DNA from: an uncultured Chlamydiae bacterium
GTDB taxonomy: Bacteria > Chlamydiota > Chlamydiia > Chlamydiales > JAJFMA01
Reading direction: 5' to 3'
Assembly: GCA_963713615.1 (NCBI GenBank)
Contig: CAVQMM010000001.1
Span: 288,001 to 352,000 of the forward strand
Length of the DNA stretch: 64,000 nucleotides
In this document: positions 21,695-58,684 of the stretch, in pieces
How positions within the stretch are numbered: position 1 is the first letter of the stretch
Layout of the letters: every line of letters begins with the position of its first letter
Program-made: the position numbers and the translations under genes
The notes under the pieces: generated by a model
Seen by the model: the letters and a program-made list of their open reading frames with translations, nothing else
What the model was told of the DNA's origin: nothing
The model's database searches: none

Positions 21695-22446
21695 GAGGTA
21701 ATTGCAGAAGTCCGATTTTTCGAAGTCAATTTCCTGAAAATCGGATGCCGGTGAAGAGAGAGCCATTCCCTTCCCAGGCCCGAAGGGTCGATATTGCAAC
21801 AGGCCATGGCATCGCCATGGTATATGCCAAAACGTGTTTCGCAGTCTGAAGGACTGCCATAAGACGTCAGTATTCACACGCTATTTATACAAGCGCCTTA
21901 TGGCAGCCCTACAGGCTGCGAAATCCCTTCCTGGCATATACCATGGCGATGCCACATAGGCCTCAACCTAAGCCTAACAATCGTATCTCGGCGCGCAGCG
22001 CTTTGGAGTGCGGTCGCTTGCGACCGCTTTGGGTTCCTTGCGACGGTCGTGTGCAACGGCATTACTATAATTCCCTAAGGGTAAAATAGTTAGTACATGC
22101 AGCCTTCGACGAATCCATACAATGCCGTTTAGCATTGCCGTCCCAAGGAACGAAAAGCGGTCGCAAGCGACCGCACTCCAAAGCGCTGCGCGCCGAGATA
22201 CGATTGTGAAGTCCTAAGTCATTGAGATATAAGCTCAAAAGACCTGTTAGGTTGAGGCCTATGTGGCGATGCCATGGCCTGTTGCAATATCGACCCTTCG
22301 GGCCTGGGAAGGGATAAAAGCCTGTCTCTCCAGACTAGATAGTGCCATGCCATTTGAGCTTTCCAGAATCGCCTTCTCGCAAAAAAAGGTTACCTTTTTT
22401 CCTAAGAATCGATCCTTAAGGGCTCAAATAATTTTGCAATTACCTC
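21695..22446 (+). mobile_element. Family D composite MITE carrying a nested H element
   Basis: TIR GAGGTAATTGCA/TGCAATTACCTC; internal IR arms CCCAGGCCCGAAGGGTCGATATTGCAAC. Confidence 0.92.
21955..22263 (+). mobile_element. Family H MITE (309 bp), 11-bp TSD
   Basis: 17-bp TIR CATAGGCCTCAACCTAA; TSD TGGCGATGCCA at 21944-21954 and 22264-22274. Confidence 0.95.
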
Positions 22447-22588
22447 TCATGGACGATTATGCTAAGTCCTACAAAACCGGATGAGCCCAAAATGCTCAAT
22501 CTTTACAATGTTAAAAAATTAAAAGGATGAAGATTAGGTTTATAAATAAAAACTGCTGATAAACGATTTATGTTTCCACAAACTGAAA

Positions 22589-23881
22589 CTACTTTTCTGA
22601 GTTCATGTCAGTGGATCGCATTAAGAGCCACTGATAGATGGCCACCACTTCTATTTCGGGGAGCTCTGGATTAGCAGGCTCTTCCTCTTGAGTGAGGATC
22701 AGCCCGCGCTCAACACGAAGTTCTTTCATGGCCTTAAGTAAGGCTTTATACTCCCGCTCTCGAGTCTTTGGTTCTTTTAAACTCTCGCTTACTTGAATTA
22801 GAAGTACAATTTCAGTGCCCTTACGAACAAGAAAATCCACTTCTAAGTTATCTTCTGTTTTATAGTAAAAGACTTCTTTAAATCTTCTTCTCAGTTCGAG
22901 ATAGACAATGTTTTCAAGGTACCGTCCTTGCTTTTTAGAAAAATGGAATGCAATTTGTTTCGCCAGCCCAGTGTCAATGGCATATACTTTCTTTTGCAGT
23001 TGGGTCTGTTGTGAAACAGAGAATGAAAATCGATCCAACGTAAAAATTAAATAGGCATTTTCTAAGTAATGGATGTAATTTTTGACGGTGTTAACACTTC
23101 CGAGGTTTAAGTTGTTTTTCATTTTTGTGTACGATAGAGGGGCTCCGAGGTTGCTTAATAGGTCAAGAGTGAGCTCACGAATTGCTTTAACCTCTTTTAC
23201 TTCGTAGCGAACGATGACATCTTTGTAGAGAATGTTTTCATAAACATTTTGAAGGACTAAAGGATTTTTGTGTTCTAAGTATTCTGGCATGCCACCATTT
23301 TCTAAAAAATCATTAAAAAATCTTTTTAAGATTGCCTTTTCCTGGGTTATCACGAAGCTTTTTTCGTTATAGGAGACTTGGTGATAGTGGAGATATTCTC
23401 TAAAGGAGAATGGAAGGAGTTCAACGACAATGTGCCGCCCAGTTAGGTGAGAGCTTAGTTCTGAGCTTAGCAAAGAGGCATTGGATCCTGTGATGAAGAC
23501 TTTATTTTTTTCTCGATGTATTCGGCGTACGAAGAGTTCCCAATCTTCAATATTTTGAATCTCATCAAAGAAAAAGACATACTTTAATCCATAAAGTTCG
23601 ATTAATATTTCATATAAAGAATTGAAATCCTGGGTTGTAAATTTGACAAAACGCTCATCTTCAAAGTCAACAAAATAAAACTCGTCTTCATAATGCTTCT
23701 TGAGAATTTGCCGCATCAGAGTGGATTTTCCACATCGGCGCACCCCAGAGATAATGATGGCATGAGAAAGGGGTATAAGAGAATCAATGAGCGTCAATTG
23801 CTCTCGCTCAATGCCGGTAGAGTCGATCTTCCTCGCACCTTCTTGTTCCAAAATGACTTGTTTGATGACGTCTTTATCCAT
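22589..23881 (-). CDS. AAA+ ATPase (AAA_14 plus DUF4143-type)
   Basis: GVRRCGKST, FFDEIQ, ITGSNASLL, GGMPE, KVYAIDTGL, EVDF. Confidence 0.93.
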   Translation of the reverse strand: MDKDVIKQVILEQEGARKIDSTGIEREQLTLIDSLIPLSHAIIISGVRRCGKSTLMRQILKKHYEDEFYFVDFEDERFVKFTTQDFNSLYEILIELYGLKYVFFFDEIQNIEDWELFVRRIHREKNKVFITGSNASLLSSELSSHLTGRHIVVELLPFSFREYLHYHQVSYNEKSFVITQEKAILKRFFNDFLENGGMPEYLEHKNPLVLQNVYENILYKDVIVRYEVKEVKAIRELTLDLLSNLGAPLSYTKMKNNLNLGSVNTVKNYIHYLENAYLIFTLDRFSFSVSQQTQLQKKVYAIDTGLAKQIAFHFSKKQGRYLENIVYLELRRRFKEVFYYKTEDNLEVDFLVRKGTEIVLLIQVSESLKEPKTREREYKALLKAMKELRVERGLILTQEEEPANPELPEIEVVAIYQWLLMRSTDMNSEK

Positions 23882-23973
23882 GAATCCCCTTTTCTTCAAT
23901 GATAGGTGTCTTAGGAAAATCTGTCAATTGCAGTGATAGATTGGGGGCTTGAGCTTAGTCCTTGTGATTTGAA

Positions 23974-24131
23974 GCAAACGGCAAAAAACATGATAGATGG
24001 GATACGCTTGATATGCATGATGAAGGAAAAGAGTACCCACATATCATGCATATCCTTATGAACCATGTTTTTTTGTTTGCAGCCAAATTTTGGTAACCGT
24101 TCACGGGCTCGGATACCTATCCCGTGAACGG
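23974..24131. repeat. Two adjacent intergenic hairpins
   Basis: Imperfect IR GCAAAC..AAAAAACATG / CATGTTTTTTTGTTTGC (23974-24080); perfect 11-bp IR CCGTTCACGGG/CCCGTGAACGG (24097-24131). Confidence 0.7.
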
Positions 24132-24158
24132 GAGAAACGCTGCGGCGTTATTAGAGAA

Positions 24159-24602
24159 CTATCTGAGATCTTCCCAGCGTATACATTTGACTAAATGGTC
24201 GAAATGGCGAGTATTTTGAGTAATGACGATGGCATTTTCTACAAGCGCCTGGGCAGCTAAAATACAGTCAGCGTCCATAGAGTTATCACCCGCCGTAGGA
24301 CGTCCCATTTGTCGCGCTTTGACCCACAGGTCGGCAGCTTTATTCCAGTGTTCTGTAGTAATGATGAGCAACTCCATAGTCGACACTAATTTATTTAATC
24401 GCTGAAGACCGGTGGTTGCTTGTTTATACAATAGGCCTCTACGTACTTCATAATCGACTAGCTGGGACAGCAAGAGTCGTGGAGCCACTCTATCAAAGTG
24501 GATCACTAGCTTCTTAGCGAGCTCTTGGTTATTCTTGTGTGATGGAGCGCACAATGCCGAAACGATATTAGTATCGAGTAAATAAGAGCGATTGTCAGGC
24601 AT
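24159..24602 (-). CDS. PIN-domain (VapC-like) ribonuclease toxin
   Basis: YLLDTNIV, YEVRRG, DADCILAAQA, ITQNTRHF. Confidence 0.92.
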   Translation of the reverse strand: MPDNRSYLLDTNIVSALCAPSHKNNQELAKKLVIHFDRVAPRLLLSQLVDYEVRRGLLYKQATTGLQRLNKLVSTMELLIITTEHWNKAADLWVKARQMGRPTAGDNSMDADCILAAQALVENAIVITQNTRHFDHLVKCIRWEDLR

Positions 24603-24852
24603 CTCTAAATTTCACTCGATGTTGTTTGATCTCTTTGTCAACCTCTGGCCAAACATGATAATCAAAATCGTCAGACTCTTCCAGCCAACTTCGAATAAGG
24701 GTGCTTACGGGTGAACCAGGAGATGGAGGCAAGTCAGTAATCGGCTGGTAGTGCCTATCAAAGAGCACGCTCATTTCACATCCAATATTCGATGCGTCAC
24801 GGTAGCTAAGACTAATAGGCTCTATCAGATCATTATAGTCCGGTGCAGCCAT
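24595..24852 (-). CDS. Small acidic protein, putative antitoxin
   Basis: 85 aa, overlaps the PIN start by 8 nt; AGGAG RBS. Confidence 0.65.
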   Translation of the reverse strand: MAAPDYNDLIEPISLSYRDASNIGCEMSVLFDRHYQPITDLPPSPGSPVSTLIRSWLEESDDFDYHVWPEVDKEIKQHRVKFRDA

Positions 24853-24866
24853 AGAATGATCTCCTG

Positions 24867-25631
24867 TTACTTTTGGTTCAAGAATTCCGTATACTTGTCA
24901 GTACGAGCATTATCGAACTCTCGACGTACCATATTATGTAAATCTTCCAGCTCAGATTTTAATGAATCCCAGTGTGCGGGTGTCTTTTCCATGCAAACGG
25001 CATCAATGTCTAAGATAATAGGTCGAATTTCGTTCGTGGATCGCTCTTCGGCGACAGAAAGAATGAGAGTTCTATCTCCTTTTTCCATTATTTCGGAACG
25101 GAAAAAATACCCCTCAGATTGCTTTAATAGTCTACTTGGAAACATATCCGTACTTTTCAACCACTCGCCTATTTGCTCTTGAGAGCTGCTACGAGGAATA
25201 CGGTTGATGTATCGTAAACCAATACGCTCAATATTACACCCCTCTATAATTTCACAAAGGGCAGTCCAAGCCTCTTGAATATGACTTAAAAAATGTGTCC
25301 AGCTTTGATATCGGCTGACTTCATTTATTGTTAGACACCATGGGCTTAATTGAAAAAGAAATTTGTTGTCGTGATGTCGATACAGCATGTGATTAATGGG
25401 ATATGTTTCGGTGGTGGCTGTGAGAGAACCTGGGCTGTTGACGAGTCTAAAAGTGGAAGCTAACTTGGGCTCCATTTCGAACATGTCACCTAATTTTTTA
25501 AGGAATTTGCCAAACCAAATGCCATCCCAGCCAGTTTCCTTTGCGGGGGGAGAAAAACGAATTTCGCAAATAGCTTCTACAATAGTGGGGTTAGGAAAGA
25601 CTTGTGAAGGTAGCTTTTTAGGTTTTGTCAT
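24867..25631 (-). CDS. TIGR04255-like protein
   Basis: NPTIVEAICEIRF, Y.SW..F, IERIGLRYINRI, ILDID motifs. Confidence 0.85.
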   Translation of the reverse strand: MTKPKKLPSQVFPNPTIVEAICEIRFSPPAKETGWDGIWFGKFLKKLGDMFEMEPKLASTFRLVNSPGSLTATTETYPINHMLYRHHDNKFLFQLSPWCLTINEVSRYQSWTHFLSHIQEAWTALCEIIEGCNIERIGLRYINRIPRSSSQEQIGEWLKSTDMFPSRLLKQSEGYFFRSEIMEKGDRTLILSVAEERSTNEIRPIILDIDAVCMEKTPAHWDSLKSELEDLHNMVRREFDNARTDKYTEFLNQK

Positions 25632-25735
25632 AATATTTCACGGGTATATTGACGTGAGAAGTGGCTCAGACAAAAGATACTCTATAGCCCTCATTTTACC
25701 AAATCTTATAATATATATGTACCGATTCGCACCGG

Positions 25736-26836
25736 CTAAAGATGCTCTAAAATTTTAGACAGAACTGCATCGCTATCCTGTAAGTTTCCTGTAAACCTGA
25801 TATCAGGGACATAAGGGACGTTATGTCCACGAGGGCGATTTCTAATGGCCTTTATAGGAATAGACAATTTGCCTTTTCCGCTGGGAAGAACAACAACCCT
25901 TGCTTCCATATAAACGCTATCAGCTCCCGTTGTCTCACCCAATAGAAGCGTCTCATGTCCCATGGCCTTTATAGCATCGATGAAGTCTAGGGCAGCGCTA
26001 AAACAATGATGATCGATGATGACAAAGATCTTAGCCTTAACAGGGTTCAGTACCCTCTCCGATGGTACTGCGCTATCCCTTCTTAAGTCGGATTCTACGT
26101 AATAGTGCTCACCGCGCTCAAAAGCAATCTGCATACCTTTAGCAATTTTTTCCGCCCAAGCAACGGCATCGCTTTCTTCACCAAACTGCTCTACTAAAAT
26201 TTCCTTAAAGCCATTGACATGATTAACATTATCCTGGCTTATACGCCATTCAGTGGTCATGTTTGGTTGATTATCCCATTGCTGTTTGGCGAATGTTTCT
26301 CCAAAAAAAGCTTGAAGAAGCCTTTTTCCCCATTCGCTATTTCCTCCACCATTTCCCTTGAGATCGAAAATCAGAGCTCGATCGTGACGGTATTGAGCAA
26401 TTGTATGAATGATATGGTTTAGGCAATGGGCCTGAATTTCATCAGGAGCCAAGGTTGGGAGTGTAATCCAATGAACGCCTTCTATAGGTTCTGTGATTCC
26501 AAATGAATTGAGACTGCTGGTCACCGAAGAGCCCTCCCTGGTTTCGAAGTAACGAGCTTTCAAATGGACATCTTGAAAACTCTTTACAAAATTCTCAACT
26601 ACATTAGCGCGGTCATCATCACCAGAGCAGTAGCAAAGCTTCTGCAAAGCACTATGCATTCCATCTTCTATTTGCTTACAAAAATCAGGATTTAGTGGGT
26701 CGTACACCCCGGGATGACTTTCAAACAGTATTTTAGCAATAAATTCAAGATCAGCAATATACGAATTATTTTTGAATTCAAATGATACCGATTGAGCAGA
26801 ATGAATATTTAGAAGGGAAGTAGGTAAAGTATTCAT
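25736..26836 (-). CDS. S41-family peptidase-like protein
   Basis: LIFDLKGNGGGNS, CFSAALDF, GETTGAD; promoter TTGCAA-17-CATAAT just upstream of MNTLP. Confidence 0.85.
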   Translation of the reverse strand: MNTLPTSLLNIHSAQSVSFEFKNNSYIADLEFIAKILFESHPGVYDPLNPDFCKQIEDGMHSALQKLCYCSGDDDRANVVENFVKSFQDVHLKARYFETREGSSVTSSLNSFGITEPIEGVHWITLPTLAPDEIQAHCLNHIIHTIAQYRHDRALIFDLKGNGGGNSEWGKRLLQAFFGETFAKQQWDNQPNMTTEWRISQDNVNHVNGFKEILVEQFGEESDAVAWAEKIAKGMQIAFERGEHYYVESDLRRDSAVPSERVLNPVKAKIFVIIDHHCFSAALDFIDAIKAMGHETLLLGETTGADSVYMEARVVVLPSGKGKLSIPIKAIRNRPRGHNVPYVPDIRFTGNLQDSDAVLSKILEHL

Positions 26837-26954
26837 AAGCGGGCCATTATGTCTCAAGTGCTTAATTTTTGCAAGATTGTGAAAAATCAAATGGCAAAGA
26901 TGAGCTTTATAAACAAAGACTATTCATAAAAGATTTATATTCAGCAAACAGAAG

Positions 26955-27116
26955 CTACTCTTCTGAGATCATGTTGGTGGATCGCATCAAGAGCCACTGA
27001 TAGATGGGCACAATTTTTATTTGGGGGGAACTCTGGACTAGCAGGCTCTTCTTCTTGAGTGAGGATCAGTCCTTGTTCAACACGAAGTTCTTTCATGGCC
27101 TTAAGTAAGGCTTTAT
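26955..27116 (-). pseudogene. 3' remnant of a paralog of the AAA ATPase at 22589
   Basis: Diverged direct copy of 22589-22749 with one extra base; 5' part absent. Confidence 0.85.
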
Positions 27117-27237
27117 GAGGATATGGACGAATCCAGAATAAAAAACAAAAAAAAATCTTTTTTTTCTTTTTATTTTCAGAAAACTATTGATAGACGATTT
27201 GTGTTTCAACAAATAGGCGCTGCGGTATTATTATGTA

Positions 27238-28689
27238 ATGCTGGCATACCTGATTATAAAGGAATTTTTCTTAGACGTGGCTTTTGGCACTTTGATGCCA
27301 TTGGAGCGCCCCCATGCAGTTGCTATAGTGTTCGAAGAGGACTCTATGGTCGTTGCATCATGCGGTGCTGCGGCTAGAAAGGCAGGTGTCCGACCAGGGA
27401 TGCCAGAGCCTGAAGCGCGCGCACTTTTCCCAAAGGGGAGCTTTGCTGTTGTCGATAGAGTCGTTGCTGAAGAGGCTTTTGCTAAGGTCCTCAACCTACT
27501 GGAATCCTTCTCCCCTACATTTCAAGCTTTGGGGATCGGCAGTGCCTTGCTAGACTTGGGAGTGATCCCTGATCTAGAACGTGTGCAGCAGGAGGCTAAG
27601 GGGCTTATCACTGGTCTAGAACGCAAAAGCGGTCATGTGGCTAGCTTAGGGCTGGCCGAGGGGCGCTTTGCCGCTAATGTAGCGGCGCGTCTGGCGGGTC
27701 CTGGTCAGGCGATAATTGTTCCAGCAGGTGATGAAGCCATCTTTTTGCAGGGACAGCCTGTGGCTTGTTTGCCTGTGAATCACGAAATTCTTCGTCGACT
27801 CGACCTTCTGGGCATTGAAACGATCGGAGATCTGGCGAAGCTTCCCGAAGATGATCTCGTCAATCTGTTTGGTGACGAAGGATGCCTAATGGCAGCTTTG
27901 GCTCGTGGTCAAGATGAGACTCTTGTGGCTGCTGAGCGCTTGATTGAAGCTCTTAGTGGCAATATCGACTTTGATTTTCCCTTAGAAGGCGGCGAGCTTA
28001 TCCTGGGAGAGGTAGTGCAGATTCTCGAGGGATTATGTGATCGACTGCGTGAAAAGCACCAGATGGCCACGCGCATCCGTGTCACAATAGGTGTGATGGG
28101 GCATGAGAAAGTATCCATAAGCTTGCACCTGGCTTCACCGAGTCATGATGCTGCACGAATTATCCAGCCTTTACGCGATCGCTTGGCCTCACTGTCTTTG
28201 CCTGGGCCTATTGCTACTTTGGAAGTGGCTTTGGAAGGATTTGTCGATTCCCATGCACGTCAGCTGACATTGGCGTCGCTGCTGCCCAAAGCTGAGCGGT
28301 GGCGCAATATTCAGCGCATTGTGGAACGCCTCTCCGTTCGAACGGAGAAGGCTACCCTGATGCAGGTTGTTTGGGATGACCTCAAATCGCGCATACCAGA
28401 GTGGCGTGGGCACCTTCAGGATATGATTAGAGAGACACAACGTCGTGGTCTATACCTTCCCAGGCCAGTCAATGTTGCCGCTGATCCCAGTGGAGCTCCT
28501 CGCTTAGTACGCACAGGTAGGGGGTGGGAGCCTGTAGAAACGATCGTGGAGGCATGGGAAGTGGATGAGGATTGGTGGACTCCACGGCCTATTGCACGCA
28601 GCTATTATCGCGTGCTTTTGCGCAATGGTGCTGTGATGCGTCTTTTCCGCGATCAGCGTCGAGGCTCCTGGTACCACCAAAATCGGTGA
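27238..28689 (+). CDS. imuB: ImuB-like Y-family polymerase homolog
   Basis: AARKAGVRPGM, SP..Q.LG..SALLD, L.LLGI.TIGDLA.L; C-terminal WEVDEDWW...RSYYRV module; upstream of dnaE2. Confidence 0.85.
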   Translation: MLAYLIIKEFFLDVAFGTLMPLERPHAVAIVFEEDSMVVASCGAAARKAGVRPGMPEPEARALFPKGSFAVVDRVVAEEAFAKVLNLLESFSPTFQALGIGSALLDLGVIPDLERVQQEAKGLITGLERKSGHVASLGLAEGRFAANVAARLAGPGQAIIVPAGDEAIFLQGQPVACLPVNHEILRRLDLLGIETIGDLAKLPEDDLVNLFGDEGCLMAALARGQDETLVAAERLIEALSGNIDFDFPLEGGELILGEVVQILEGLCDRLREKHQMATRIRVTIGVMGHEKVSISLHLASPSHDAARIIQPLRDRLASLSLPGPIATLEVALEGFVDSHARQLTLASLLPKAERWRNIQRIVERLSVRTEKATLMQVVWDDLKSRIPEWRGHLQDMIRETQRRGLYLPRPVNVAADPSGAPRLVRTGRGWEPVETIVEAWEVDEDWWTPRPIARSYYRVLLRNGAVMRLFRDQRRGSWYHQNR

Positions 28690-28695
28690 GCAGTA

Positions 28696-31600
28696 ATGAA
28701 TGACAGCTCCACATTTGTAGAACTTTGCTGTAGAAGTTACTTTTCGTTTTTAGAAGGGGCTTCATCGCCGGATGCACTGGCACATCAGGCTGCAGAACTC
28801 GGTTTGAAGGCATTGGCTTTGACAGATCGCAATGGTCTCTATGGAGCCTACACATTTTATCGCGCTTGCCGCTCTGTGGGCATTAAGCCGATTATTGGTG
28901 CTCAGCTAACTTTGGAGGGTGGCGATGAAATTATCGTTCTCTGTACCGATGCTAGCGGTTATACCAAGTTATCCCTACTACTCACGGATGCTCATCGCGG
29001 AAGAAGCAAGGGCGATCCTTTAGTAACGTGGCAGCATCTGCAGCGCTTAGCTGGCGGAGGCCTCATTTGCTTGGCTGGCGGTAAGATGGGCAAAACCGAT
29101 GCTCAAAGTCTCCTGCGGTATAAAGAGTTATTTGGCGACGGCAACTTATATGTAGCTTTAACGCATCATCACGATGCTGGTGACAAGGTTCTTTGCAAAA
29201 AGACTGCTAAAATCGCTCAGGAGCTGGGTCTTCCTCTTGTGGTTACTAATGCTGTCTGCTACAGCAAAAAGCCTGAAGGGCACCTGCATGATGTTCTGCT
29301 GTGCATTAAGAACCACGTGACTCTAAGCAATTCACATCATCATCGTCCTGGCAATCACCAGCGCTATTTGAAGTCTCCAAAGGTGATGTGTCGTCTATTT
29401 CATGATTATCCCGAGGCTCTCCAGAATACGTTGGCTATTGCTAACCGTTGCAATATTTCGTTGGATTTCTCATCGTATCGCGTGCCTGATTTTCCAGTAC
29501 CTCCGAAACACACCATAGATAGCTACCTGGCAGAGCTCTGTTGGCAGCGGGTTGCCTCGCGATATAATCCTATCACCGATGTTGTAAAGGCTAAGGTAAA
29601 CGAAGAACTGGCCCTCATAGCCTCCTTGAAGCTTTCAGGATACTTCCTCGTCGTATGGGACATCGTGGAATATGCTAGGTCGCTCGGAGTGCCCGTTCAG
29701 GGGCGTGGATCAGCAGCTAACTCCATTGTCAGCTATGTTTTGGGAATCACCCCGGTCGATCCGGTTGCTCACAAACTCTTCTTGGGACGCTTTATTCATG
29801 AGGGGATGACAGAGGCTCCAGATATCGACCTAGACTTCGCAGCGACCCGCCAAGAAGGTGTCTCCAACCGCGAGGATATCATCCAATATGTCTACCGCAA
29901 ATATGGGGAAGACCATGTAGCGATGGTATGCACCTACATCACGTTTCAGGCTCGCAGTGCCATTCGGGAGGTGGGGAAGGTGTTAGAGCTACCTGAGCAT
30001 ATCCTCGATCAGATGGCTCGGCTGATCAGTCGCTATGGCATGAAGGACGTCTTTGCTGAGTTGGAACGTACTCCTGAGGTTGTGGCTGACCTTAAGGCGG
30101 AGTCTTGGCAGGTTTTCAAGGAACTGGTGATCGCTATAGCAGACATTCCGCGACACATCTCGATTCATGTGGGGGGCATGGTGATAGCCTCGCGGCCCAT
30201 TGCTGAACTGGTGCCCCTGGAGCCTGCGCGAATGGAGGGCAGGGTTGTCTGCCAGTGGGACAAAGACATGGTTGGTGATGCTGGCCTCATCAAGGTGGAC
30301 ATCCTAGGGCTGGGGATGTTGGCAGTATTACGAGAGGCGCAGTGGTTGATAGAAGAAGGGTATGGAGAGGAGATCGACTTAGCAGCTTTACCGCTCGATG
30401 ATCCTGCGATTTATGCAAACATCTCCCGAGCGGATACGGTAGGAGTATTTCAGGTGGAATCGAGAGCCCAGATGCAAAGTTTGCCACGCGTGCGGCCGAG
30501 GAATTTCGATGAGTTGGGAGTTCAGATTGCGTTGATTAGGCCGGGGCCATTGCAGGGAAACATGGTTTCTCCCTATATCAAGCGTAAGCAGGGCGAAGAG
30601 GCTGTGTTGTACATACATCCTTCTTTAAAACCTGTTTTGGAGGATACCCTTGGGGTCATTCTCTTTCAGGAACAGGTGCTCATGGTAGCCGTAGCGGTAG
30701 CGGGTTTTAGCGCCTCACAGGCAGCGGATTTGCGGCGGGCGATGAGTCGCAAGCGTTCTCAGGAGGCGATGCAGAGGTTGAAAAATGCCTTTTTGGAAGG
30801 AGCACAGCGCAATCGCATTGAAAAAACACAAGCGGAGATGGTCTTCCATGCCCTGGAAGGCTTTGCATTGTATGGTTTCTGTAAGTCTCACGCGCTCTCC
30901 TTTGCCAAAATCACCTATGTATCGGCTTGGCTGAAGCACTACCATCCTGCAGCCTTCTTGGCGGCTTTGCTTAACAATCAGCCTATGGGCTTCTATCCTT
31001 GTAAGACGCTGATCGACGATGCTAAACGTCATGGAGTTGTTGTTCATCCGGTCGACATCAATGCTAGCCAGAGACGTTGTCATGTTCTCGATCCTCAGCA
31101 GGTTCAGTTGGGCTTTGTCATGGTGAAAAATACCGATGGTAACGCCATTGTGGAGGCTCGTGAACGAGGAGGGCCTTTTGCTTCTCTACGCGACTTTGTT
31201 CAAAGAACACATGTGCGGCGTCAGGTGATCGAGTATCTCATTCAGGCCGGAGCTTTCGACAGCATGGGACTAGATAACCGTGAGCTTCTATGGCAGCTAT
31301 GGTTAATTCAGCGTACGGAGGATCTTTTTAGCGGGCAAGAGATAGTGCCTCCAGCCTTGCCACCTTCAGGGGAGTGGGATCTCATCCGCGGGGAATATCA
31401 GGCTCAAGGATTTTCCGCTAACAGGCATCCGGCGGCTTTGTTGCGCGGTCAGCTTAGTCGTCAGGGGGTGGTCACTTCAGATGCTCTTGTTGATCTCGAC
31501 GAAAAGGCTAAGGTCAGCGTTGCTGGGGTTGTCGTGTGTCGTCAGCGCCCTCCTACAGCCAAGGGCTTTGCGTTTCTTACCCTTGAGGATGAGTGTGGCA

Positions 31601-32690: not shown

Positions 32691-32785
32691 TCGAGACCTC
32701 CCTCTGATTGGTGCTAGTGAAAGAATTGTTCGGCTAAAACCCGCTTGTAGCCCAAACCCAAAAAGGTGTCAATGGCTTCGTAAAT

Positions 32786-32980: not shown

Positions 32981-32984
32981 CTTG

Positions 32985-34595: not shown

Positions 34596-34606
34596 TTCGG
34601 GTATGT

Positions 34607-35041: not shown

Positions 35042-35066
35042 GACTCGAACTATAGCAAGATGATTT

Positions 35067-35960: not shown

Positions 35961-35995
35961 GCAGTAAGTATAGCACGCGTTCGAATTAGGATTGA

Positions 35996-36625
35996 GGAAT
36001 TTTTACCAGAGGCGCCGAGATAAGAGAAGAGGAGGAAGGAAAAAGAGGAAAGAAAAAATCAGTCCAATCAGTCCATGGTGTCCATAAGAGGTAATTACAG
36101 AAGTATTTGGGCTCTCATGGATCGATTCTTTGAAAAAAAATCACTTTTTTTTGTGAGAAGGCGATTCTAGAGAGCTTAAGTGGTATGGCACTATCCAGTC
36201 TGGAAAGACAGGCTTTTCTCCCTTCCCAGGCCCGAAGGGTCGATATTGCAACAGGCCATGGCATCGCCATGGTATATGCCAGGAAGGGATTTCGCAGTCT
36301 GAAGGACTGCTACAAGACGCCAGTTTACAAACACCATTTATGCATGCGCTTTATGGCAGCCCTACAGGCTGCTAAAACCGTTTTGGCATATACCATGGCG
36401 ATGCCATCGCCTGTTGCAATATCGACCCTTCGGGCCTGGGAAGGGAATGGCTCTCTCTTCACCGGCATCCGATTTTCAGGAAGTTGACTTCGGAAAATCG
36501 GACTTCTGCAATTACCTCATGGTGTCCATAAAGTCCATTTTGGCATCGGTGAAAATGGACTGAATGGACGAATTGGACTGATTGGACGAATTGGACATTT
36601 TTTTCCTCTCCTAACCCTCTTTCCT
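35996..36625. repeat. Family B half-site plus family E (GGAC/GTCC 9-bp tandem palindrome) hosting a D element
   Basis: GGAATTTTTACCAGAGGCGCCGAGAT; GTCCAATCAGTCCATGGTGTCCAT...GGACTGAATGGACGAATTGGACTGATTGGAC. Confidence 0.75.
36088..36518 (-). mobile_element. Family D MITE with a 13-bp direct repeat
   Basis: GAGGTAATT...AATTACCTC flanked by ATGGTGTCCATAA on both sides; near reverse complement of the 41023 copy. Confidence 0.92.
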
Positions 36626-36720
36626 ATTCCCCCCCCCTCCCTCCCCCTTCCCCCTCCCTTTTTAATGGCTGATCATGTATAAACGAGCCGATCATAACAG
36701 CTCTAACCCAAGATAGGTTC

Positions 36721-37134: not shown

Positions 37135-38366
37135 AGGGACATGCCGTTGGTGCCAAGCCTCAGATGCATGCGCTGCGCGACTGGTTGCGAGTGATGCTCT
37201 GTGGCATGGGAATGGGTGTCGCTGACTTAGTTCCTGGCTTCTCCGGTGGTACCGTTGCCTTTCTGACAGGCATTTACCCCGATTTACTGAACAGTATCGT
37301 AAGCTTCAATGCACGCGCATTTAGGGCATTGGCATCACTACGTGTTTCAGCCTTTTTCAGCATCATCGCATGGGAATTTCTATTGGCTTTAGGAATGGGA
37401 ATAGCCATTTCTGCAGGTTCCTTGGTGCGCGTGATTCATTACATTCTAGGCGAACCCACCTTACGTACTTACCTATTTGCAGCTTTTGTAGGGTTGGTGA
37501 TGGCGTCGGCATCGATCTGCGCACGCCAAGTGCGTGAGTGGTTATGGCCTCAGGTCGCCGCTTTGATAGGTGGAGGAGTCCTGGCTTTTGCAGTCACCAG
37601 CTTATCACTGGCAAATACTGCTGATGGTCCCCTTTATGATGTGGTCGTTCGACAGGAGACTGTGAGTGGAGGACAAACACGTGCTCTCACCAATTATGAT
37701 GCAAAGACACAGCGCGTCTTGGCCGTCCCTGAGGCCACACTGGTGGCGATGCTCTCTAGAGGCGTGGTGGAGGGCGATACCCCAGTCTATAGCCACAGCC
37801 TCAAGCAAGAGGGGACTGTGGAAGATTTCGTGCAGGAGAGCTCCCCAAACCGTTTCAGTGCGTGGTTGATGCTTTGTGGCATGGTTGCCATCTGTGCCTT
37901 GCTATTACCGGGGATGTCCGGATGCTATATGCTTACCATTCTCGGAGCCTATCCTATTTTTATAGGATCATTATCCGACCTAATTAACGGGCTTTTGAAG
38001 CTGAGTTTTGATACAGAGGCTTTTTGGAACCTAGCTAGTTTAGGCGTGGGCGTTGTCATCGGACTAGGCCTTTTCTCACGGGTGGTAAGATGGCTTTTGC
38101 ATCATTACCGTAACCTTACCGTTGCGGCGATCACAGGCTTTATGATTGGTGCTCTACGGTCCGTGTGGCCTTTTTGGTCCTATGAGTACCAGGTAGTGCC
38201 CTTAAGGTTGCAGGAAGGCCCACAGCTTCAATTGGTGGCTCCGATCTTACCCGATGTAGCCAGTGGGGCCTTTTGGATAGCGGTGGGGTGCTCAATAGCG
38301 GGCTTTGCCATCGTCATGATCCTGGATTCTATGACAAAGCACCGCGAACGCTTGCCTTCGCACTAG
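37131..38366 (+). CDS. DUF368 family membrane protein
   Basis: GMGMGVADLVPGFSGGTVAFLTGIY, ALLLPGMSG, GFMIGALR.VWPF; GTG start overlaps the previous stop. Confidence 0.9.
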   Translation: MKGHAVGAKPQMHALRDWLRVMLCGMGMGVADLVPGFSGGTVAFLTGIYPDLLNSIVSFNARAFRALASLRVSAFFSIIAWEFLLALGMGIAISAGSLVRVIHYILGEPTLRTYLFAAFVGLVMASASICARQVREWLWPQVAALIGGGVLAFAVTSLSLANTADGPLYDVVVRQETVSGGQTRALTNYDAKTQRVLAVPEATLVAMLSRGVVEGDTPVYSHSLKQEGTVEDFVQESSPNRFSAWLMLCGMVAICALLLPGMSGCYMLTILGAYPIFIGSLSDLINGLLKLSFDTEAFWNLASLGVGVVIGLGLFSRVVRWLLHHYRNLTVAAITGFMIGALRSVWPFWSYEYQVVPLRLQEGPQLQLVAPILPDVASGAFWIAVGCSIAGFAIVMILDSMTKHRERLPSH

Positions 38367-39142
38367 AACAATACCTTGTGCAAGATAAGTCCATGGGCCG
38401 GTGCCGTGATACCTGCTTCGGTGCGGTTGCCAGTTTGTAGGAGTAATGGTAATGTATTGGGGGATATGCGTCCGCGGCCAATGTATGCTAGGGTCCCTAC
38501 GATATTGCGTGCCATGCGAAATAGGAAAGATGTCCCTTCAAGCTCAAATCTGAGTTGCCGATTTTCGAGTTCGATGATTTCAAGACGTTTTAAGGTACGC
38601 ACAAAATCCTGATAGTGCAGGTTCTTGCGCGTATTGCAGAAGGCATGAAAATTGTGCGTGCCAACTAGCTGCAAGGCTCCTTGGCGCATTAGAGGCAGAT
38701 CGAGGGGATAAGCATAATGCCATTCGAAATGGCGCCGAAGTGGTCGTTGCACCTGAGCGTTACAGAGGTGATAATGATAGATTTTGCCGTGATTGTGCAG
38801 GGTCGGATGAAAGTCGAAGGTGGCTTCCCACAGCTTTAGCACAGCCATATCTGGTGGAATTAAAGCATTGATGCCTTCAAACAAAGCCTCAATATGGATG
38901 TCTCGCGACGTGTAAAAGTTAACCACCTGGCCTTCGGCATGCACTCCAGCATCTGTTCGACTGGCGGCCTGCAAGGTAATGGGATGTCTTAGGATTTGTT
39001 CACAAACTTGTCGCAGAGTCTTTTCGACTGAATGCCCCTGGCAGTTATCCTGCCAACCTTGATAGGCTTCGCCATCATAGGCGAGGATCAGTGCAATGTT
39101 CTTGGGTTCTTGTGACGAAATATGTTCACTCCAGTGCTTCAC
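38363..39142 (-). CDS. truA: tRNA pseudouridine synthase TruA
   Basis: AYDG..Y.GWQ, SRTDAGVHAEGQV, FLFRMARNIVG, TAPAHGL. Confidence 0.96.
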   Translation of the reverse strand: MKHWSEHISSQEPKNIALILAYDGEAYQGWQDNCQGHSVEKTLRQVCEQILRHPITLQAASRTDAGVHAEGQVVNFYTSRDIHIEALFEGINALIPPDMAVLKLWEATFDFHPTLHNHGKIYHYHLCNAQVQRPLRRHFEWHYAYPLDLPLMRQGALQLVGTHNFHAFCNTRKNLHYQDFVRTLKRLEIIELENRQLRFELEGTSFLFRMARNIVGTLAYIGRGRISPNTLPLLLQTGNRTEAGITAPAHGLILHKVLF

Positions 39143-39161
39143 AAGAACCCGTTCTTCAAGA

Positions 39162-39764
39162 TTAGTGAATCGTGTGGTAGGTGTTCACAAAGAGTTGAAC
39201 CCCTTCCGCGAAGCGTTGAATCGCTAGCATCACTAAGATCATTCCACAGAGGCGTTCAGCAGCCATCAAAGCATTCTTAGTAACTAGGCGTTCTAACTCT
39301 GCTCCGTAGTATAGAATAGCTGTCCCAAAGGCCCAAGCCACAACGATAGCGATAGGAACAATGGATACTGAAGTCTCCATGCGAGCATAAAGCATGATGG
39401 TCGCCAATAACGATGGGCCTGCTGTAAGCGGCAGTGCTAGAGGAACGAGGATGGGGTTATCTTCCGGTTGTAGAGTCTGGCGGATGCTGTATGGTCCGAT
39501 GAATAAAATACCGATACCGACTAGGAACAAAATCAGACCTGAGGTGATTCGCAACGTTGTTTCCGAAAGCTGAAAGAGGCTGAGGATCGTTTCACCTAAC
39601 AGAAAGAAGAATAACATCAAGCCCAGGGCGATGCACATTTCGCGAAGAATAATCTGCTTCTGACGGGCTGGCGGAACATTGCGCATCACCTGCAAAAATG
39701 TGCTGATGTTGCCGATAGGGTCCATGATAAAGAAGAACACTAGGATGACGGAGATCAGTGTCAT
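39162..39764 (-). CDS. MarC family membrane protein
   Basis: FFIMDPIGN, VPLALPLTAGP, ERLCGMIL. Confidence 0.92.
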   Translation of the reverse strand: MTLISVILVFFFIMDPIGNISTFLQVMRNVPPARQKQIILREMCIALGLMLFFFLLGETILSLFQLSETTLRITSGLILFLVGIGILFIGPYSIRQTLQPEDNPILVPLALPLTAGPSLLATIMLYARMETSVSIVPIAIVVAWAFGTAILYYGAELERLVTKNALMAAERLCGMILVMLAIQRFAEGVQLFVNTYHTIH

Positions 39765-39779
39765 TGTAAAAATAGCTCC

Positions 39780-40376
39780 TTACAACCCATTCAGAAAGAG
39801 ACCAAAACCTTTAATGATCATGTCCACGGCGATCATAGACAGAACCAATCCCATGAGCTGTTCGAGAGCAAACAGGCCCCTCTTGCCAAAAGTGCGCAGG
39901 AGGTAAGGAGCGGCTGCCAATACTGCAAAGACACCCACCCAGGCAATGAGGATAGCGCCGGTCATCTCTAGAGGATTTTCTAACTTTTTAGCGTAGATCA
40001 TAATGTACGTCAGCAGTCCCGCCCCAGACAATAGAGGCGTTGCTATGGGAACAAGATAGGGATCGCGGGGGATTTCAGCGACCTCATCGGCTTCATTCTC
40101 GGGATGGTTAGGGAAGACCATTCCGATACCGACCAAGAGGATGAGCACACCACCACAGAGACTGAGCGCATAATTTTTAATGCCTAGAGCATCCAAGACC
40201 GGCTCGCCTAGAAACTGAAAGAAGAGAGCTAGCAGGAGAGCGAAGAGGGCCTCGCGCATCAAAATCTGCTTTTGGCGTACAAAGTCATAGTGCCTGACGA
40301 TAGCAAGAATAGCGGGAGAGTTACCGATCGGATTCGTGATGATGAAGAGCTTGATAGCTAGATCAAAGATGTCCAC
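39780..40376 (-). CDS. MarC family membrane protein
   Basis: FIITNPIGN, VPIATPLLSG, EQLMGLVL. Confidence 0.92.
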   Translation of the reverse strand: MDIFDLAIKLFIITNPIGNSPAILAIVRHYDFVRQKQILMREALFALLLALFFQFLGEPVLDALGIKNYALSLCGGVLILLVGIGMVFPNHPENEADEVAEIPRDPYLVPIATPLLSGAGLLTYIMIYAKKLENPLEMTGAILIAWVGVFAVLAAAPYLLRTFGKRGLFALEQLMGLVLSMIAVDMIIKGFGLFLNGL

Positions 40377-40380
40377 GCTC

Positions 40381-40910
40381 TTATACCCATTGGTTGATAA
40401 CATCGCCGATGCCGGCGCCGCGTTCTTCGGCCTCTCTGACCTTTAGCCTCTTGCCGGATTGCTCGAGGTCTATGGTCAGAGCTGTCAAACCACCCACCAC
40501 CAAACCGATTGCAAACCCTGCTTCTAAGGAGAAAGGTGCGATGATTATCCCGAACAAAAATGTAATCATTTTGATGAGGGGATAGTCATTTATAAGGTCT
40601 AAGGTTCTTTGACTCAGTTCGTCAAGTGAATTGGACAGTGCTTGATTGTACTCTTTGGCAACATTTATGACAAGACGAGTCGTTAGTGTGCCTGCAGCGT
40701 GACCGAAGAGAGGCCAGGCAAAGGGCATCCCTAACAGGCGACAGGCATAGCCTAACCCGGCCGATGCGCAAGATTTCGAAGTCGCATCGAGTGTTACCTT
40801 TCGAAAAAAACTTAAGGAAGATGAGCTTTGCGAAGTCGAGGGCTGGCTTTTGCGAAGTTCACCGGGGGGGATTCAAACGGTCGTTCGGAAATGCGAGTTT
40901 GATATTCCAT
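40381..40910 (-). pseudogene. Inc-like membrane protein gene frameshifted at a C7 tract (phase-off or sequencing error)
   Basis: GGAGG RBS plus ATG at 40910 gives MEYQTRISERPFESPP; one extra C in 40864-40870 joins it to the 40381 ORF (176 aa). Confidence 0.75.
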
Positions 40911-41022
40911 GGCTGCCTCCTATGAATGAAATAAGAAGCGCCATATATTACTAAAAAATTGCCTACAAGCGAAGAGAAAATGCGCGTTACTCTTTAGCAA
41001 AATGGACTAAATGGACCCGCAT

Positions 41023-41454
41023 GAGGTAATTGCAGAAGTCCGATTCTCCGAAGTCAATTTCCTGAAAATCGGATGCCGGTGAAGAGAGAGTCATTCCCTT
41101 CCCAGGCCCGAAGGGTCGATATTGCAACAGGCCATGGCATCGCCATGGTATATGCCAAAACGGTTTTAGCAGCCTGTAGGGCTGCCATAAAGCGCATGCA
41201 TAAATGGTGTTTGTAAACTGGCGTCTCGTAGCAGTCCTTCAGACTGCGAAATCCCTTCCTGGCATATACCATGGCGATGCCATGGCCTGTTGCAATATCG
41301 ACCCTTCGGGCCTGGGAAGGGAGAAAAGCCTGTCTTTCCAGACTGGATAGTGCCATACCACTTAAGCTCTCTAGAATCGCCTTCTCACAAAAAAAGGTAA
41401 CCTTTTTTCCCGAGAATCGATTCTCAAGGGCTCAAATAATTTTGCAATTACCTC
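41023..41454 (+). mobile_element. Family D MITE inside a family E palindrome
   Basis: GAGGTAATTGCA...TGCAATTACCTC; flanks ATGGACTAAATGGAC / GTCCATTTCGTCCATGGTGTCC. Confidence 0.92.
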
Positions 41455-41512
41455 AGTAAGTCCATTTCGTCCATGGTGTCCATTCAGTCCAGTTCGTCCA
41501 TTTGGTTTAGCC

Positions 41513-43048
41513 TTATGTTTTGGCCAACGGCATCACAGATAGCAAAGCACAATGCCACCCACGAGTAGCTGTGCGAGACAGTAGGTTGAGGCCCGAGGAA
41601 ACACCACCGCTGATATATCTTAGGCTCATGATCTGCAGTCCAAACTGCAACGGCTCGAACGCCTTCTTCATGCCACTGTCAAAGCCTTTCACATCATCCT
41701 TAGCAAGAGCACCGAAGGCACCGACAAGGCTACCCAGGAAGTGTGGGATGGCCTGAACATAGAATGCACCATAGATGAGGCAGTTGCCCAACCTCATGGA
41801 TAGAACTGAGTCCAGTACTGACCCAACGAGCCCGAAAATTGGCCCGAAAAGTGGCCCTCCTGCAACCCAAAAAGAGAGTGGTAAGAACGGATTGGGTTCC
41901 TTCAGTCTTGGCCCTGCTAAGAAGGTAGCTATATTAGACGGTAACATATTGAAAAGCATTGCTGACGCTAGAGCATATGTCGAGGTCTTCACACCATTGC
42001 GCCAGCCACTTTTGAAGGCAGAAAATATTTGGAAGGCTGCAACAGCTGCTGGAAGCACCCCCAATGTCCATTGCGTCACTGAATAGCCCTTCAGGAGTAA
42101 AGAAGAGGTTCCCAACCACGATGATGCCGCTGCAGCATTGCATACGCCTTCAGCAGATTCTAACGTCGCGCCCATTACCTGATCAGCAAAAACCGTGCTA
42201 TTGCCATAGAATGCTGAAAAACTATCTTTGAGGGCATTGAGGGCGAAAATGCTGGCAATACCCGTCGAGATGGCTGTATTAATTAAGGCACTTCGCAATT
42301 CCGTTCTGATTCCACTGACCTGTACAGCTTCAGCACGCGTTCCTTGAGTAGACGCCAAAGCAGTCTGCTTGGCTTCGCAGGCCTTTACAGTGCTATCTAG
42401 ATCGTCTCTAGCCGTGAGATATTTTGCCACATTGTCATATTGTCCAGTGTAGCACTCCTTAAACTCGGTCAAGACGTGTTGGATCGTTCCATCGTCTGGA
42501 TACCAATTGATGGAATGGCATGCTAATTCAAAGTCATGGATATTGCTAGCCGTGCAACCTGTGGCGAACCACTGTTGAAGTTTGTTGACATCGATGTTTT
42601 GGCTTTTTAGAAGGTTCCTAACCTCGCCTTGTTCCGTTTTCAACGTGTTTTTGGCCTGATTCCAAAAGACATGATCATTCTTGATACGGGCCTGGCGTGC
42701 AGCATTGAGCTCGCCGCTTGCTAGTCCTGCAGAAGCCCCCGAAGATGTCTTTGGCAGCAGCCAGGGCAGGTGTAGCGAGGTAGACGCAATCGTATATGCA
42801 TTACGCGCTAAGTCTAGGCCGGCCATTACCATAAATGGAGGATAAAAAAGACCACTGACAACGCGGATGGGGGTCCAAACGCGGTGGAGGCTTCCTCCAG
42901 CGACAGTAGCCATCACCTGAGCGCCAATGAATGAAGACAATAGGCGTCCGCCAACTTCCCATGCGCAGTCCAACCCTATGGAATTGCACGGCCACGTGGG
43001 TTTTAATACGCTGGACCATGATAGGCCTGGTAAAGAAGAAGAATCCAT
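41513..43048 (-). CDS. Hypothetical multi-hydrophobic/coiled-coil protein, candidate Inc/effector
   Basis: 511 aa; Ser-rich N-terminus; promoter TTGAAT-17-TAGATT at 43112-43084. Confidence 0.8.
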   Translation of the reverse strand: MDSSSLPGLSWSSVLKPTWPCNSIGLDCAWEVGGRLLSSFIGAQVMATVAGGSLHRVWTPIRVVSGLFYPPFMVMAGLDLARNAYTIASTSLHLPWLLPKTSSGASAGLASGELNAARQARIKNDHVFWNQAKNTLKTEQGEVRNLLKSQNIDVNKLQQWFATGCTASNIHDFELACHSINWYPDDGTIQHVLTEFKECYTGQYDNVAKYLTARDDLDSTVKACEAKQTALASTQGTRAEAVQVSGIRTELRSALINTAISTGIASIFALNALKDSFSAFYGNSTVFADQVMGATLESAEGVCNAAAASSWLGTSSLLLKGYSVTQWTLGVLPAAVAAFQIFSAFKSGWRNGVKTSTYALASAMLFNMLPSNIATFLAGPRLKEPNPFLPLSFWVAGGPLFGPIFGLVGSVLDSVLSMRLGNCLIYGAFYVQAIPHFLGSLVGAFGALAKDDVKGFDSGMKKAFEPLQFGLQIMSLRYISGGVSSGLNLLSRTATRGWHCALLSVMPLAKT

Positions 43049-43226
43049 GTGTTATTAGCTCCTTGTCTAGGTAAAAACGGTATAATCTAACAGTACTTAT
43101 GCATACATTCAACGATATGTGTGTTTTGTTTCGCTTAAGCATTCATTAAGATCAGATAAGTTTTCACAATCGTTGTTGGCTTGCAGTGCTCTGGAGTGTG
43201 TCGTTCTTAGATAGGATAGATTAAAG

Positions 43227-43386
43227 GGCCTTATTCACCTTTGCGGTCAGTTTTCGGTCGACTGCAAAAGGATCGTCTGTCGCGTTTTGCTCCTCGGACA
43301 TAGCTGGCGCTATGCCCTCGTCACAAACCACGACATCCGACCTTTTTCGTCCGACCGAAATTCTGACCGTAAAGGTGAACAAGGCC
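43227..43386 (+). mobile_element. Family F MITE (160 bp), 8-bp TSD
   Basis: TIR GGCCTTATTCACCTTT/AAAGGTGAACAAGGCC; TSD GATTAAAG on both sides. Confidence 0.95.
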
Positions 43387-43402
43387 GATTAAAGGACCTA
43401 AA

Positions 43403-44155
43403 GAGGTAGTTGCAGAAGTCCGATTTCCGAAGTCAATTTCCTGAAACTCGAATGCCACCGAAGAGAGATAAACGATTCCCTTCCCAGGCCCGAAGGGTCG
43501 ATATTGCAATAGGCCAGGGCATCGCCCTGGTGTATTCCAGAAAGGGATTTCGCAGTCTGAAAGACTGCCACAAGACGCTGGTTGGCATAGACCATTTATG
43601 CATGCCTTTTATCGCAGTCTTTCAGACTGCGAAATACCTTCCTGGCCTATACCAGGGCGATGCCCCATAGGCCTCAACCTAAGCCTAACAATCGTATCTC
43701 GGCGCGCAGCGCTTTGGAGTGCGGTCGCTTGCGACCGCTTTGGGTTCCTTGCGACGGTCGTGTGCAACGGCATTACTATAATTCCCTAAGGGTAAAATAG
43801 TTAGTACATGCAGCCTTCGACGAATCCATACAATGCCGTTTAGCATTGCCGTCCCAAGGAACGAAAAGCGGTCGCAAGCGACCGCACTCCAAAGCGCTGC
43901 GCGCCGAGATACGATTGTGAAGTCCTAAGTCATTGAGATATAAGCTCAAAAGACCTGTTAGGTTGAGGCCTATGGGGCGATGCCCTGGCCTGTTGCAATA
44001 TCGACCCTTCGGGCCTGGGAAGTGATAAAAGCCTGTGTCCACACCAGATAGTGCCATGCTGCCTGAGCTCTCTAGAATCGCCTACTAGCCAAAAAAGATA
44101 ACCTTTTTTCCCAAGAATCGATTCTCAAGGGCTCAAATAATTTTGCAATTACCTC
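43403..44155 (+). mobile_element. Family D MITE (variant) carrying a nested H element
   Basis: GAGGTAGTTGCA...TGCAATTACCTC; arms contain CCAGGGCATCGCCCTGG. Confidence 0.92.
43666..43974 (+). mobile_element. Family H MITE (309 bp), 11-bp TSD
   Basis: Identical by eye to 21955-22263; TSD GGGCGATGCCC at 43655-43665 and 43975-43985. Confidence 0.95.
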
Positions 44156-58670: not shown

Positions 58671-58684
58671 CAGTTCGTGGGGCC

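Follow-up and report, generated by a model that had tools for sequence, protein, structure and literature searches.

IS231 has the target consensus GGG(N5)CCC. In the Bacillus cereus group, IS231 and MIC231 combine a common end signature (consensus CAT-------AA--TAA; PMC2266710, Table 1) with a 10-12-bp target duplication, a G-rich target and insertion inside another transposon, and the MIC231 cassettes are non-autonomous, gene-less derivatives mobilised in trans (PMC6199540; for the IS231 subgroup also PMC2266710). Several insertion sequences target REPs, including ISRm22, ISPsy8, ISPa11, ISPpu9/10 and IS621 (PMC1525189, PMC3184786). All copies of ISRm22 (Sinorhizobium meliloti; IS4 family, IS4Sa subgroup) lie at one fixed point on the REP symmetry axis, and some carry hybrid duplications produced by recombination between copies. 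REPINs and RAYTs (PMC3116915, PMC2817692, PMC3337134) comprise inverted REP doublets and free arrays beside Y1 HUH genes, and IS1272, of the IS1182 family, can insert in palindromes (PMC5678879). The targeting principle at the locus reported here has precedents in ISRm22 and MIC231; its layered nesting is unusual.

The window, the whole stretch of 64,000 nucleotides that was analysed, belongs to a chlamydial and probably host-associated genome and matched nothing in Rfam. It contains two copies of a 309-bp MITE, H, each inserted in a copy of another MITE, D. H copy 1 (21955-22263, + strand) and H copy 2 (43666-43974, + strand) are identical (0 differences over 309 bp), with a perfect 17-bp TIR of the IS231 type (CATAGGCCTCAACCTAA). 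The first is flanked by the 11-bp target duplication TGGCGATGCCA (21944-21954 and 22264-22274, + strand) and the second by GGGCGATGCCC (43655-43665 and 43975-43985, + strand). D copy 1 (21695-22446, + strand; GAGGTAATTGCA ends) carries H in its second REP arm, while its first REP1 target arm (21804-21820, + strand; CCATGGC-ATC-GCCATGG) is unoccupied. D copy 2 (43403-44155, + strand) likewise holds H in the second arm; it has the G..C variant in both arms, so that its empty first arm (43514-43530, + strand; CCAGGGC-ATC-GCCCTGG) shows the same variant as the duplicated target. With H removed, these two hosts differ by 14.2%. Two further D copies, of 431 bp (36088-36518, - strand) and 432 bp (41023-41454, + strand), have no insertion in either REP1 arm. 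The latter serves as the D reference copy, with the REP1 doublet at D positions ~73-302 and the target stems at 110 and 247. The preliminary description of the window was thus correct as to the identity of the two H copies, the exact duplications in each host's own variant and the two empty sites. The shared position and orientation of H that it noted are a feature of the window pair alone; genome-wide, H is found in either of the two target arms that each D offers, and in either orientation.

The assembly contains 80 H copies with canonical ends and no genes, making H a bacterial MITE (309 bp, 17-bp TIR, 11-bp duplication, no transposase, 80 copies); with its nested cargo it occupies 60 kb of the genome. 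All but one (79/80) lie at [TG]GGC-N3-GCC[AC], a short palindrome found mostly within D. The strict target GGG(N)5CCC that had been proposed is present at 15/80 copies, whereas the relaxed form [GT]GG-N5-CC[AC] fits 80/80. A perfect 11-bp duplication, as expected from the 10-12 bp first claimed, flanks 69 of the 80 copies in eight sequence variants; no copy has a 10-bp or a 12-bp repeat instead (0/80 each), and six have inverted-hybrid duplications. Orientation relative to the arm is balanced (30:36, p = 0.54). The concentration of H at this motif is not due to chance, because 79/80 copies lie at an 11-mer pattern that occurs 554 times in 3.9 Mb and none of the 288 core matches outside the REP context is occupied (0/49 for the non-coding ones, as delimited by a crude ORF mask). 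In the manner of ISRm22, nearly all H copies lie in REP1 arms, the one off-target copy (C1:1654684) lying in a G-rich, non-REP site, and scattered insertion at unrelated targets is not what is seen. The two elements differ in that ISRm22 is autonomous, generates 6-bp repeats and enters free chromosomal REPs, whereas H is a MITE that generates 11-bp repeats in MITE-borne REPs. Compared with MIC231, H lacks a passenger gene, has a REP doublet and resides in a chlamydia-like host in which no resident transposase was found.

The preference for D does not reflect homing to another transposon's ends, as was first suggested: H inserts into a REP-like hairpin that D carries in its interior, at ~110 and ~250 bp. 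The use of a MITE's internal hairpin by 79 of the 80 copies is a further difference from IS231. REP1 arms in or near D number 245 of 268, and H occupies 77 of these 245. The best explanation for the presence of H in D is that nearly all of the targets are located there, the ends of D not being recognised. The interior of D is 78-85% identical to an array beside the Y1 gene L013, downstream of which 14 free REP1 arms are found; none was seen in the 1.5 kb upstream. The L013 protein matches PF01797 and scores 57.6 against the IS200 model (cut-off 55) and 22 bits against the RAYT model NF047646 (cut-off 80). None of the 14 free arms contains H, compared with 77/245 in or near D (Fisher p = 0.012). 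This was not predicted by, and runs against, a purely motif-driven model. These empty arms have other flanks, and in several of them the loop is ACC.

D-type ends also bound elements encoding DUF772 and DDE proteins (L171 and L220), and D inserts in a palindromic context of GGAC/GTCC repeats. IS1182 (NF033551) is the best model for both proteins, with scores of 86 and 72 bits, far under the cut-off of 270. An exact 4-bp duplication is present in 30 of the 77 full D copies, and about half of the D copies lack a clean one. We do not take missing duplications as proof of rearrangement, since, according to PMC5678879, IS1272 (IS1182 family) can enter palindromes without duplicating the target. As with REPINs, both D and H contain an inverted REP doublet in their interior, with free arrays beside Y1 HUH genes; unlike REPINs, these doublets stand between DDE-type TIRs and spread with DDE-type duplications, of 4 bp (D) and 11 bp (H).

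The full-length H copies (n = 60) differ by a mean of 1.1 nt (0.4%), whereas their linked D hosts (n = 32) diverge by a mean of 8.9% (maximum 28%), a value perhaps inflated by recombination between copies; H is thus ~25-fold less diverged than its hosts. The two do not co-descend (Mantel rho -0.05, p = 0.63), filled and empty copies are interleaved on the D tree and, of the 44 full D copies that bear H, only 2 have a near-identical counterpart within their class. Divergences of 0.4% and 8.9% without co-descent indicate that insertion was repeated. Together with the duplication variants, they bear out the proposal of repeated, independent insertion into D copies that had already diverged; the opposite pattern, one H-bearing clade with H diverging in step, was not found. 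H, with its IS231-type ends and 11-bp duplication, is a young element lying at one target, in both orientations, in older and diverse hosts, and we consider it probable (about 80%) that an IS231-like enzyme pasted it repeatedly into the REP1 hairpins captured by D.

An improbable alternative is homing by gene conversion, in which filled D copies convert empty ones through their shared REP arms and no transposase is needed. This would explain the absence of a cognate enzyme from the assembly; recombination among the repeats is evident from the six inverted-hybrid duplications and from flips, and there is almost no variation in the outer 20 bp of the arm, which would make short conversion tracts hard to detect. 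Against it, filled arms keep the host's T..A or G..C variant in both duplications: when the empty arm is of the minority G..C type, so is the filled one in eight of nine cases, and agreement is 49/53 overall in filled/empty doublets against 50/53 in empty/empty doublets. Diversity in the flanks is no lower for filled than for empty arms (0.035 versus 0.033 outer, 0.216 versus 0.188 inner), and the off-target copy in its non-REP site also argues against conversion.

It is less probable still that there were only one or a few entries of H into D, followed by passive spread as D+H or as a larger unit, flips producing the observed classes. Such spread did occur: D copy 1 lies within a 921-bp unit of which the genome holds three, with shared unique flanks of 124 bp and 40-45 bp, and this three-copy D+H unit, including the first window copy, is a passive duplication. 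One of the three has its 548-bp interior inverted, and we therefore reject the counting of the four arm/orientation classes as four events, since interior flips interconvert them. The empty arms beside the Y1 gene also favour few insertions. As a general account, this alternative is largely refuted by the divergence gap without co-descent and by the 42/44 H-bearing D copies that lack a same-class twin; in addition, where the target is a rare variant, both duplicates flanking H show it, and both flip-invariant orientations are common.

As initially claimed, both H ends fit the IS231 consensus, with five mismatches in 17 positions relative to IS231A. The IS231A duplication in NC_017202.1 is GGGTACCGCCA, which equals that of H at 8-9 of 11 bases; the G-rich targets are nearly identical. 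The IS231A site at L315 reads GGG-N5-CCA, with a Tn3-family tnpA 66 bp away. In other genomes, elements of 1.4-1.5 kb end in this TIR, and their proteins score above the cut-off of the IS4 model NF033592 (5/5 tested). YREK is present in 18 of the 19 aligned proteins, four of them from reference elements. The TIR-sharing transposases are 24-31% identical to IS231A, whereas transposases of core IS231 members are often >50% identical to each other; they are IS231-like rather than core IS231. In the chlamydial genome G329, the exact 17-bp TIR precedes an IS4-type ORF; it also occurs there on MITEs in GGGG-N3-CCCC-like sites.

In the present assembly, which is 99% complete, family searches and tblastn revealed no such enzyme: nothing scored above the NF033592 cut-off, and tblastn with the 19 proteins gave a best E value of 0.14. 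The preliminary description had called for a search for an IS4/IS231 transposase bounded by H ends; all 15 long H-ended elements, which might have been autonomous parents, proved to be H with nested IS66 or IS1634. Among the contigs listed from four metagenome runs, the TIR leads into no sequence other than that of the two known H ends. None of the 31 resident PF01609 hits has H or D ends, and these were rejected as the enzyme of either MITE, being ISAs1-, IS1634- or IS701-like by ends and sequences. No cognate transposase of D was found in the assembly either, nor, with one query and no positive control, a D-type transposase in seven genomes of the family. Relatives contain only short matches, to REP2 for H (5/60 genomes) and to REP1 for D (4/299 genomes, two candidates per genome scored and one genome left out), and no Y1 gene lies near the 15 weakly matching loci. 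Since the assembly yielded no cognate enzyme for either MITE, we infer that H was moved in trans, as is stated for MIC231 (PMC6199540); the IS231-like enzyme first proposed is to that extent supported by the IS4 transposases with the same TIR elsewhere and not by a resident gene.

H itself carries a second REP doublet, REP2 (21977-22207 in H copy 1, no strand assigned; arms 21977-22063 and 22121-22207), and its interior matches the two arrays that flank the RAYT gene L016, whose product scores 83.7 against NF047646 (cut-off 80). Least probable of all is movement of H by this RAYT, which matches REP2, or by a resident IS1634, IS701 or ISAs1 transposase. In its favour, these genes are present and intact-looking, no IS231-like gene was found and H carries REP2. 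Against it, these elements have other ends and duplicate targets of other lengths (IS1634 5-6 bp and IS701 4 bp, PMC2266710, Table 1; nested IS1634 6 bp and IS66 8 bp), and the H TIR accompanies IS4 transposases elsewhere. HUH enzymes are not known to make 11-bp duplications.

Under repeated insertion by an IS231-like enzyme, D, with its IS1182-like ends, would first have captured a REP doublet of the family beside the Y1/RAYT-like gene and then spread it to ~245 arms. A visiting or since-lost transposase, acting as a dimer, may have read the symmetric G-rich site and its flanks and cut the strands 11 bp apart, so that H was pasted in either orientation. Recombination would later have inverted the interiors of D, eliminated most D copies with both arms filled and generated the hybrid duplications, and the REP2 doublet of H would in turn have become a landing site for IS66, IS1634 and a further MITE, J. 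More tentatively, and at somewhat less than even odds, the whole may be a self-building chain of landing pads, in which the REP doublets that MITEs take up from RAYT loci provide more targets for the element that follows: D would have raised REP1 from ~14 arms at one locus to ~245, enabling the expansion of H to 80 copies, and H would have spread REP2 for three further DDE families (IS66, IS1634 and the IS231-like J), each with its own fixed position, D and H being orphans of departed transposases.

The 80 natural insertions of one IS231-like system into one palindrome and its natural variants form a data set for distinguishing sequence reading from hairpin-shape reading by IS4-type DDE transposases, and the H system might serve as a site-specific insertion tool. 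The case also shows how non-coding repeats can expand without harm by nesting within each other, and the stacks seed rearrangements. REP2 is targeted by IS66, IS1634 and J. IS66 inserts at H position 70 or 213 with an 8-bp duplication and IS1634 at position 54 or ~227 with a 6-bp duplication; J, a related IS231-like MITE of 281 bp with CATAGGCATCAACTTAAG ends (47213-47493, + strand), sits in a free REP2 arm with a near-perfect 10-bp duplication. The unique flanks of the window locus are barely covered in metagenome runs; D, H and the junctions of IS66 and IS1634 in H are seen in contigs of independent peat and soil runs.

Two copies of H, a gene-less MITE with a CAT-starting 17-bp TIR, lie in the window at 21955–22263 and 43666–43974. 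As the preliminary description had it, they are identical (309/309 bp) with perfect TIRs, each is bounded by an exact 11-bp duplication matching its own host variant, and their hosts, copies of a second MITE, D, differ by 14.2% with H left out; in D at 36088 and in D at 41023 the site is empty. Pairing of canonical left and right ends throughout the assembly under study (G000) gave 80 copies of H: 15 are longer elements and 65 are short, 60 of the latter measuring exactly 309 bp. Perfect 11-mers in eight sequence variants flank 69 of these, with inverted hybrids at six and other arrangements at five; duplications of 10 or 12 bp were found at none of the 80. The insertion site is [TG]GGC-N3-GCC[AC] for 79/80. 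We take it as real that an IS231-like MITE inserted, repeatedly and site-specifically, into a REP-like palindrome that is itself part of an IS1182-like MITE, and regard this reading as strong and well supported.

D is about 432 bp long with ends GAGGTAATTGCA. Its interior is a 230-bp inverted doublet (REP1) that folds into a single long stem. The stem targeted by H, CCA[TG]GGC-N3-GCC[AC]TGG, is found at D positions 110 and 247; these sites are internal, and the transposon ends of D are not the target. The doublet, which D appears to have captured, shares 78–85% identity with an array lying downstream of L013, a Y1 HUH gene of which there is a single copy. G000 contains 268 REP1 arms: D or its vicinity accounts for 245 (77 filled), 23 are free (two filled, both in a D-remnant-like context), and not one of the 14 arms in the Y1-linked array carries H (p 0.012). 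It is this concentration of 91% of the targets in D that accounts for H being there. With H excised in silico, the core motif has 554 matches in G000, and none of the 288 outside a REP context (a crude ORF mask leaves 49 of these as non-coding) is occupied, so that flanks beyond the core matter. The single off-target H (C1:1654684 in contig coordinates; 96% identical) occupies a G-rich site without a hairpin, a weak hint that target sequence rather than hairpin shape is read at insertion. A further 31 older TIR variants in G000, 16 also adjoining the REP1 target, point to earlier waves.

D is itself site-selective, its flanks being 9–10-bp-periodic GGAC/GTCC repeats (e.g. window 36060–36087 and 36519–36590); of 154 flanks, 135 have G at −8 and 137 have C at −6. 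A 4-bp duplication is exact at 30 of 77 full copies, has one mismatch at four and is absent from 43. In metagenomes the ends of D bound numerous small MITEs that have 4-bp duplications, and also full elements; the latter encode DUF772+DDE proteins, for which the nearest model is IS1182 at a score below its cut-off; no D-type transposase gene was found in G000. Head-to-tail arrays, in which 4–9 D copies are separated by a constant spacer and hardly any copy carries H, occur at C1:476526–478850, 1173286–1175136, 2273505–2277246 and 2600817–2603020, and their D-to-D joints recur in metagenome contigs.

Repeated separate insertion of H into diverged D copies is borne out by a tree of 83 D copies covering at least 380 of the 432 bp, on which 39 empty and 44 filled copies are interleaved. 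H copies diverge by 0.36% versus 8.9% for 32 linkable hosts, without co-descent (Mantel rho −0.05, p 0.63), and a same-class twin within one difference exists for 2/44 filled copies. The orientation of H relative to the arm is 30:36 among 66 perfect insertions and is left unchanged by interior flips. Counting against purely one-by-one insertion, the first D+H of the window belongs to a 921-bp unit with unique flanks, present in three copies (window 21572–22492, C1:3645580–3646500 and C1:656649–657569), of which one differs by inversion of the 548-bp D interior and a second by inversion of a 148-bp spacer. Regarding conversion, arm variants agree in 49/53 one-arm-filled and 50/53 empty doublets, filled and empty arms agree in 8/9 cases of the minority G..C variant, and reduced flank diversity around filled arms was looked for and not seen. 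A single co-diverging clade did not emerge from the genome-wide collection, nor are H copies scattered at unrelated targets. Also against insertion purely one by one, both arms are occupied in 1/107 intact REP1 doublets versus about 7 expected by arithmetic from arm frequencies; this rarity and the six hybrid duplications suggest that H copies later recombined with one another.

IS231 has the target consensus GGG(N5)CCC, and Tn4430 is an insertion hot spot. The TSD of IS231A (NC_017202.1), GGGTACCGCCA, matches that of H at 8–9 of 11 bases, and this element lies 66 bp from a Tn3-family tnpA. The ends of H fit the IS231 consensus and its duplication falls within the IS231 range, both as tabulated in PMC2266710 (Table 1). 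The H TIR occurs at at least 97 loci in GTDB genomes, among them 1.4–1.5-kb elements whose proteins pass NF033592 (5/5 tested); at 24–31% identity to IS231A, these transposases are IS231-like and not core IS231. A relative is present in 12/401 genomes of the phylum. In one chlamydial genome (G329) the exact 17-bp TIR precedes an IS4-type ORF with YREK, and MITEs lie in GGGG-N3-CCCC-like sites without D. A same-genus genome carries an IS231-like transposase element (L278, G003:C41) and 39 CATACGCATCAACCTAA-type ends; a few ends of this type are kept in G000, without the gene. The earlier proposal of an IS231-like transposase acting in trans thus holds for the ends, the duplication and the IS4 proteins with the same TIR elsewhere; searches of G000 with PF01609 and NF033592, by tblastn using 19 proteins (best E 0.14) and as part of the phylum survey did not find the gene itself, and we infer both what the enzyme is and that it was lost. 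The 15 long elements were considered as autonomous parents, but each is an H into which IS66 (12) or IS1634 (3) has inserted. Chlamydial elements of this TIR family have 9–11-bp duplications. Among non-chlamydial members, 16 of 42 paired elements examined have 19–21-bp duplications of whole REP hairpins (L052, L062, L064, L076, L092, L093, L100, L113, L118, L125 and L145), direct beating inverted in 15/16.

REP targeting by an IS4 element is already published for ISRm22, for which PMC1525189 gives 10/10 insertions in REPs, at the symmetry axis and with 6-bp repeats, and attributes hybrid repeats to recombination. MIC231 cassettes are described as moving in trans in PMC6199540; further known systems are treated in PMC3733652, PMC3184786 and PMC5678879. 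Largely open-access literature yielded no report of a MITE in bacteria that homes to a REP borne by a second MITE.

The interior of H is a second doublet, REP2, arrays of which lie on both sides of a RAYT gene (L016; NF047646 score 83.7, cut-off 80). REP2 arms receive IS66 (34/36 ends), one IS1634 element (14/14) and the IS231-like MITE J (at least 26/30), each at its own fixed position, three different positions in all; a second IS1634 element shows no REP2 preference across 18 ends. The IS66 element encodes TnpA-TnpB fused as one 193-aa ORF, plus TnpC; examples of these REP2-targeting elements are at L017 (C1:433207–435818) and L018 (C1:1118054–1120245). J (window 47213–47493; CATAGGCATCAACTTAAG ends, 30 genome-wide; duplication of about 10 bp) contains the REP2 doublet and so carries its own target. 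From outside to inside the nesting is GGAC/GTCC repeat, D, H, then IS66 or IS1634; the order of events in H/D history we likewise infer.

Part of the D+H stretch occurs in 20/24 listed metagenome runs (16 studies). Contigs of six runs compared (three studies) cover D and H, the H/target junction and the IS66 and IS1634 junctions within H, and the empty-arm joint was seen in one run; among the matches listed (four studies), every contig that reads on from the TIR enters one of the two known ends of H. The D+H arrangement is not an assembly artefact. The best-matching run may be the source sample of G000, an assembly of 3.97 Mb in three contigs (99.1% complete) in which the window spans C1:288001–352000. 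Its fused glycyl-tRNA ligase (NF011499), its RNase HIII and the Parachlamydiaceae transposase matches among same-order genomes suggest an environmental chlamydia.

The window also holds a 160-bp MITE with GGCCTT.TTCACCTTT ends (43227–43386 and 63077–63236), presumably IS1595-like by its end signature; its target duplication of 8 bp, GATTAAAG, is seen at positions 43219 and 43387. It has 247 ends genome-wide, among which no fixed target was seen, and most copies are 98–100% identical. Two intergenic palindromic repeat families are present, one as 75-bp-period arrays (7085–7572, 13124–13572 and 58673–58908) and the other as an 80-bp inverted doublet (9927–10091, 15359–15517 and 58115–58274).
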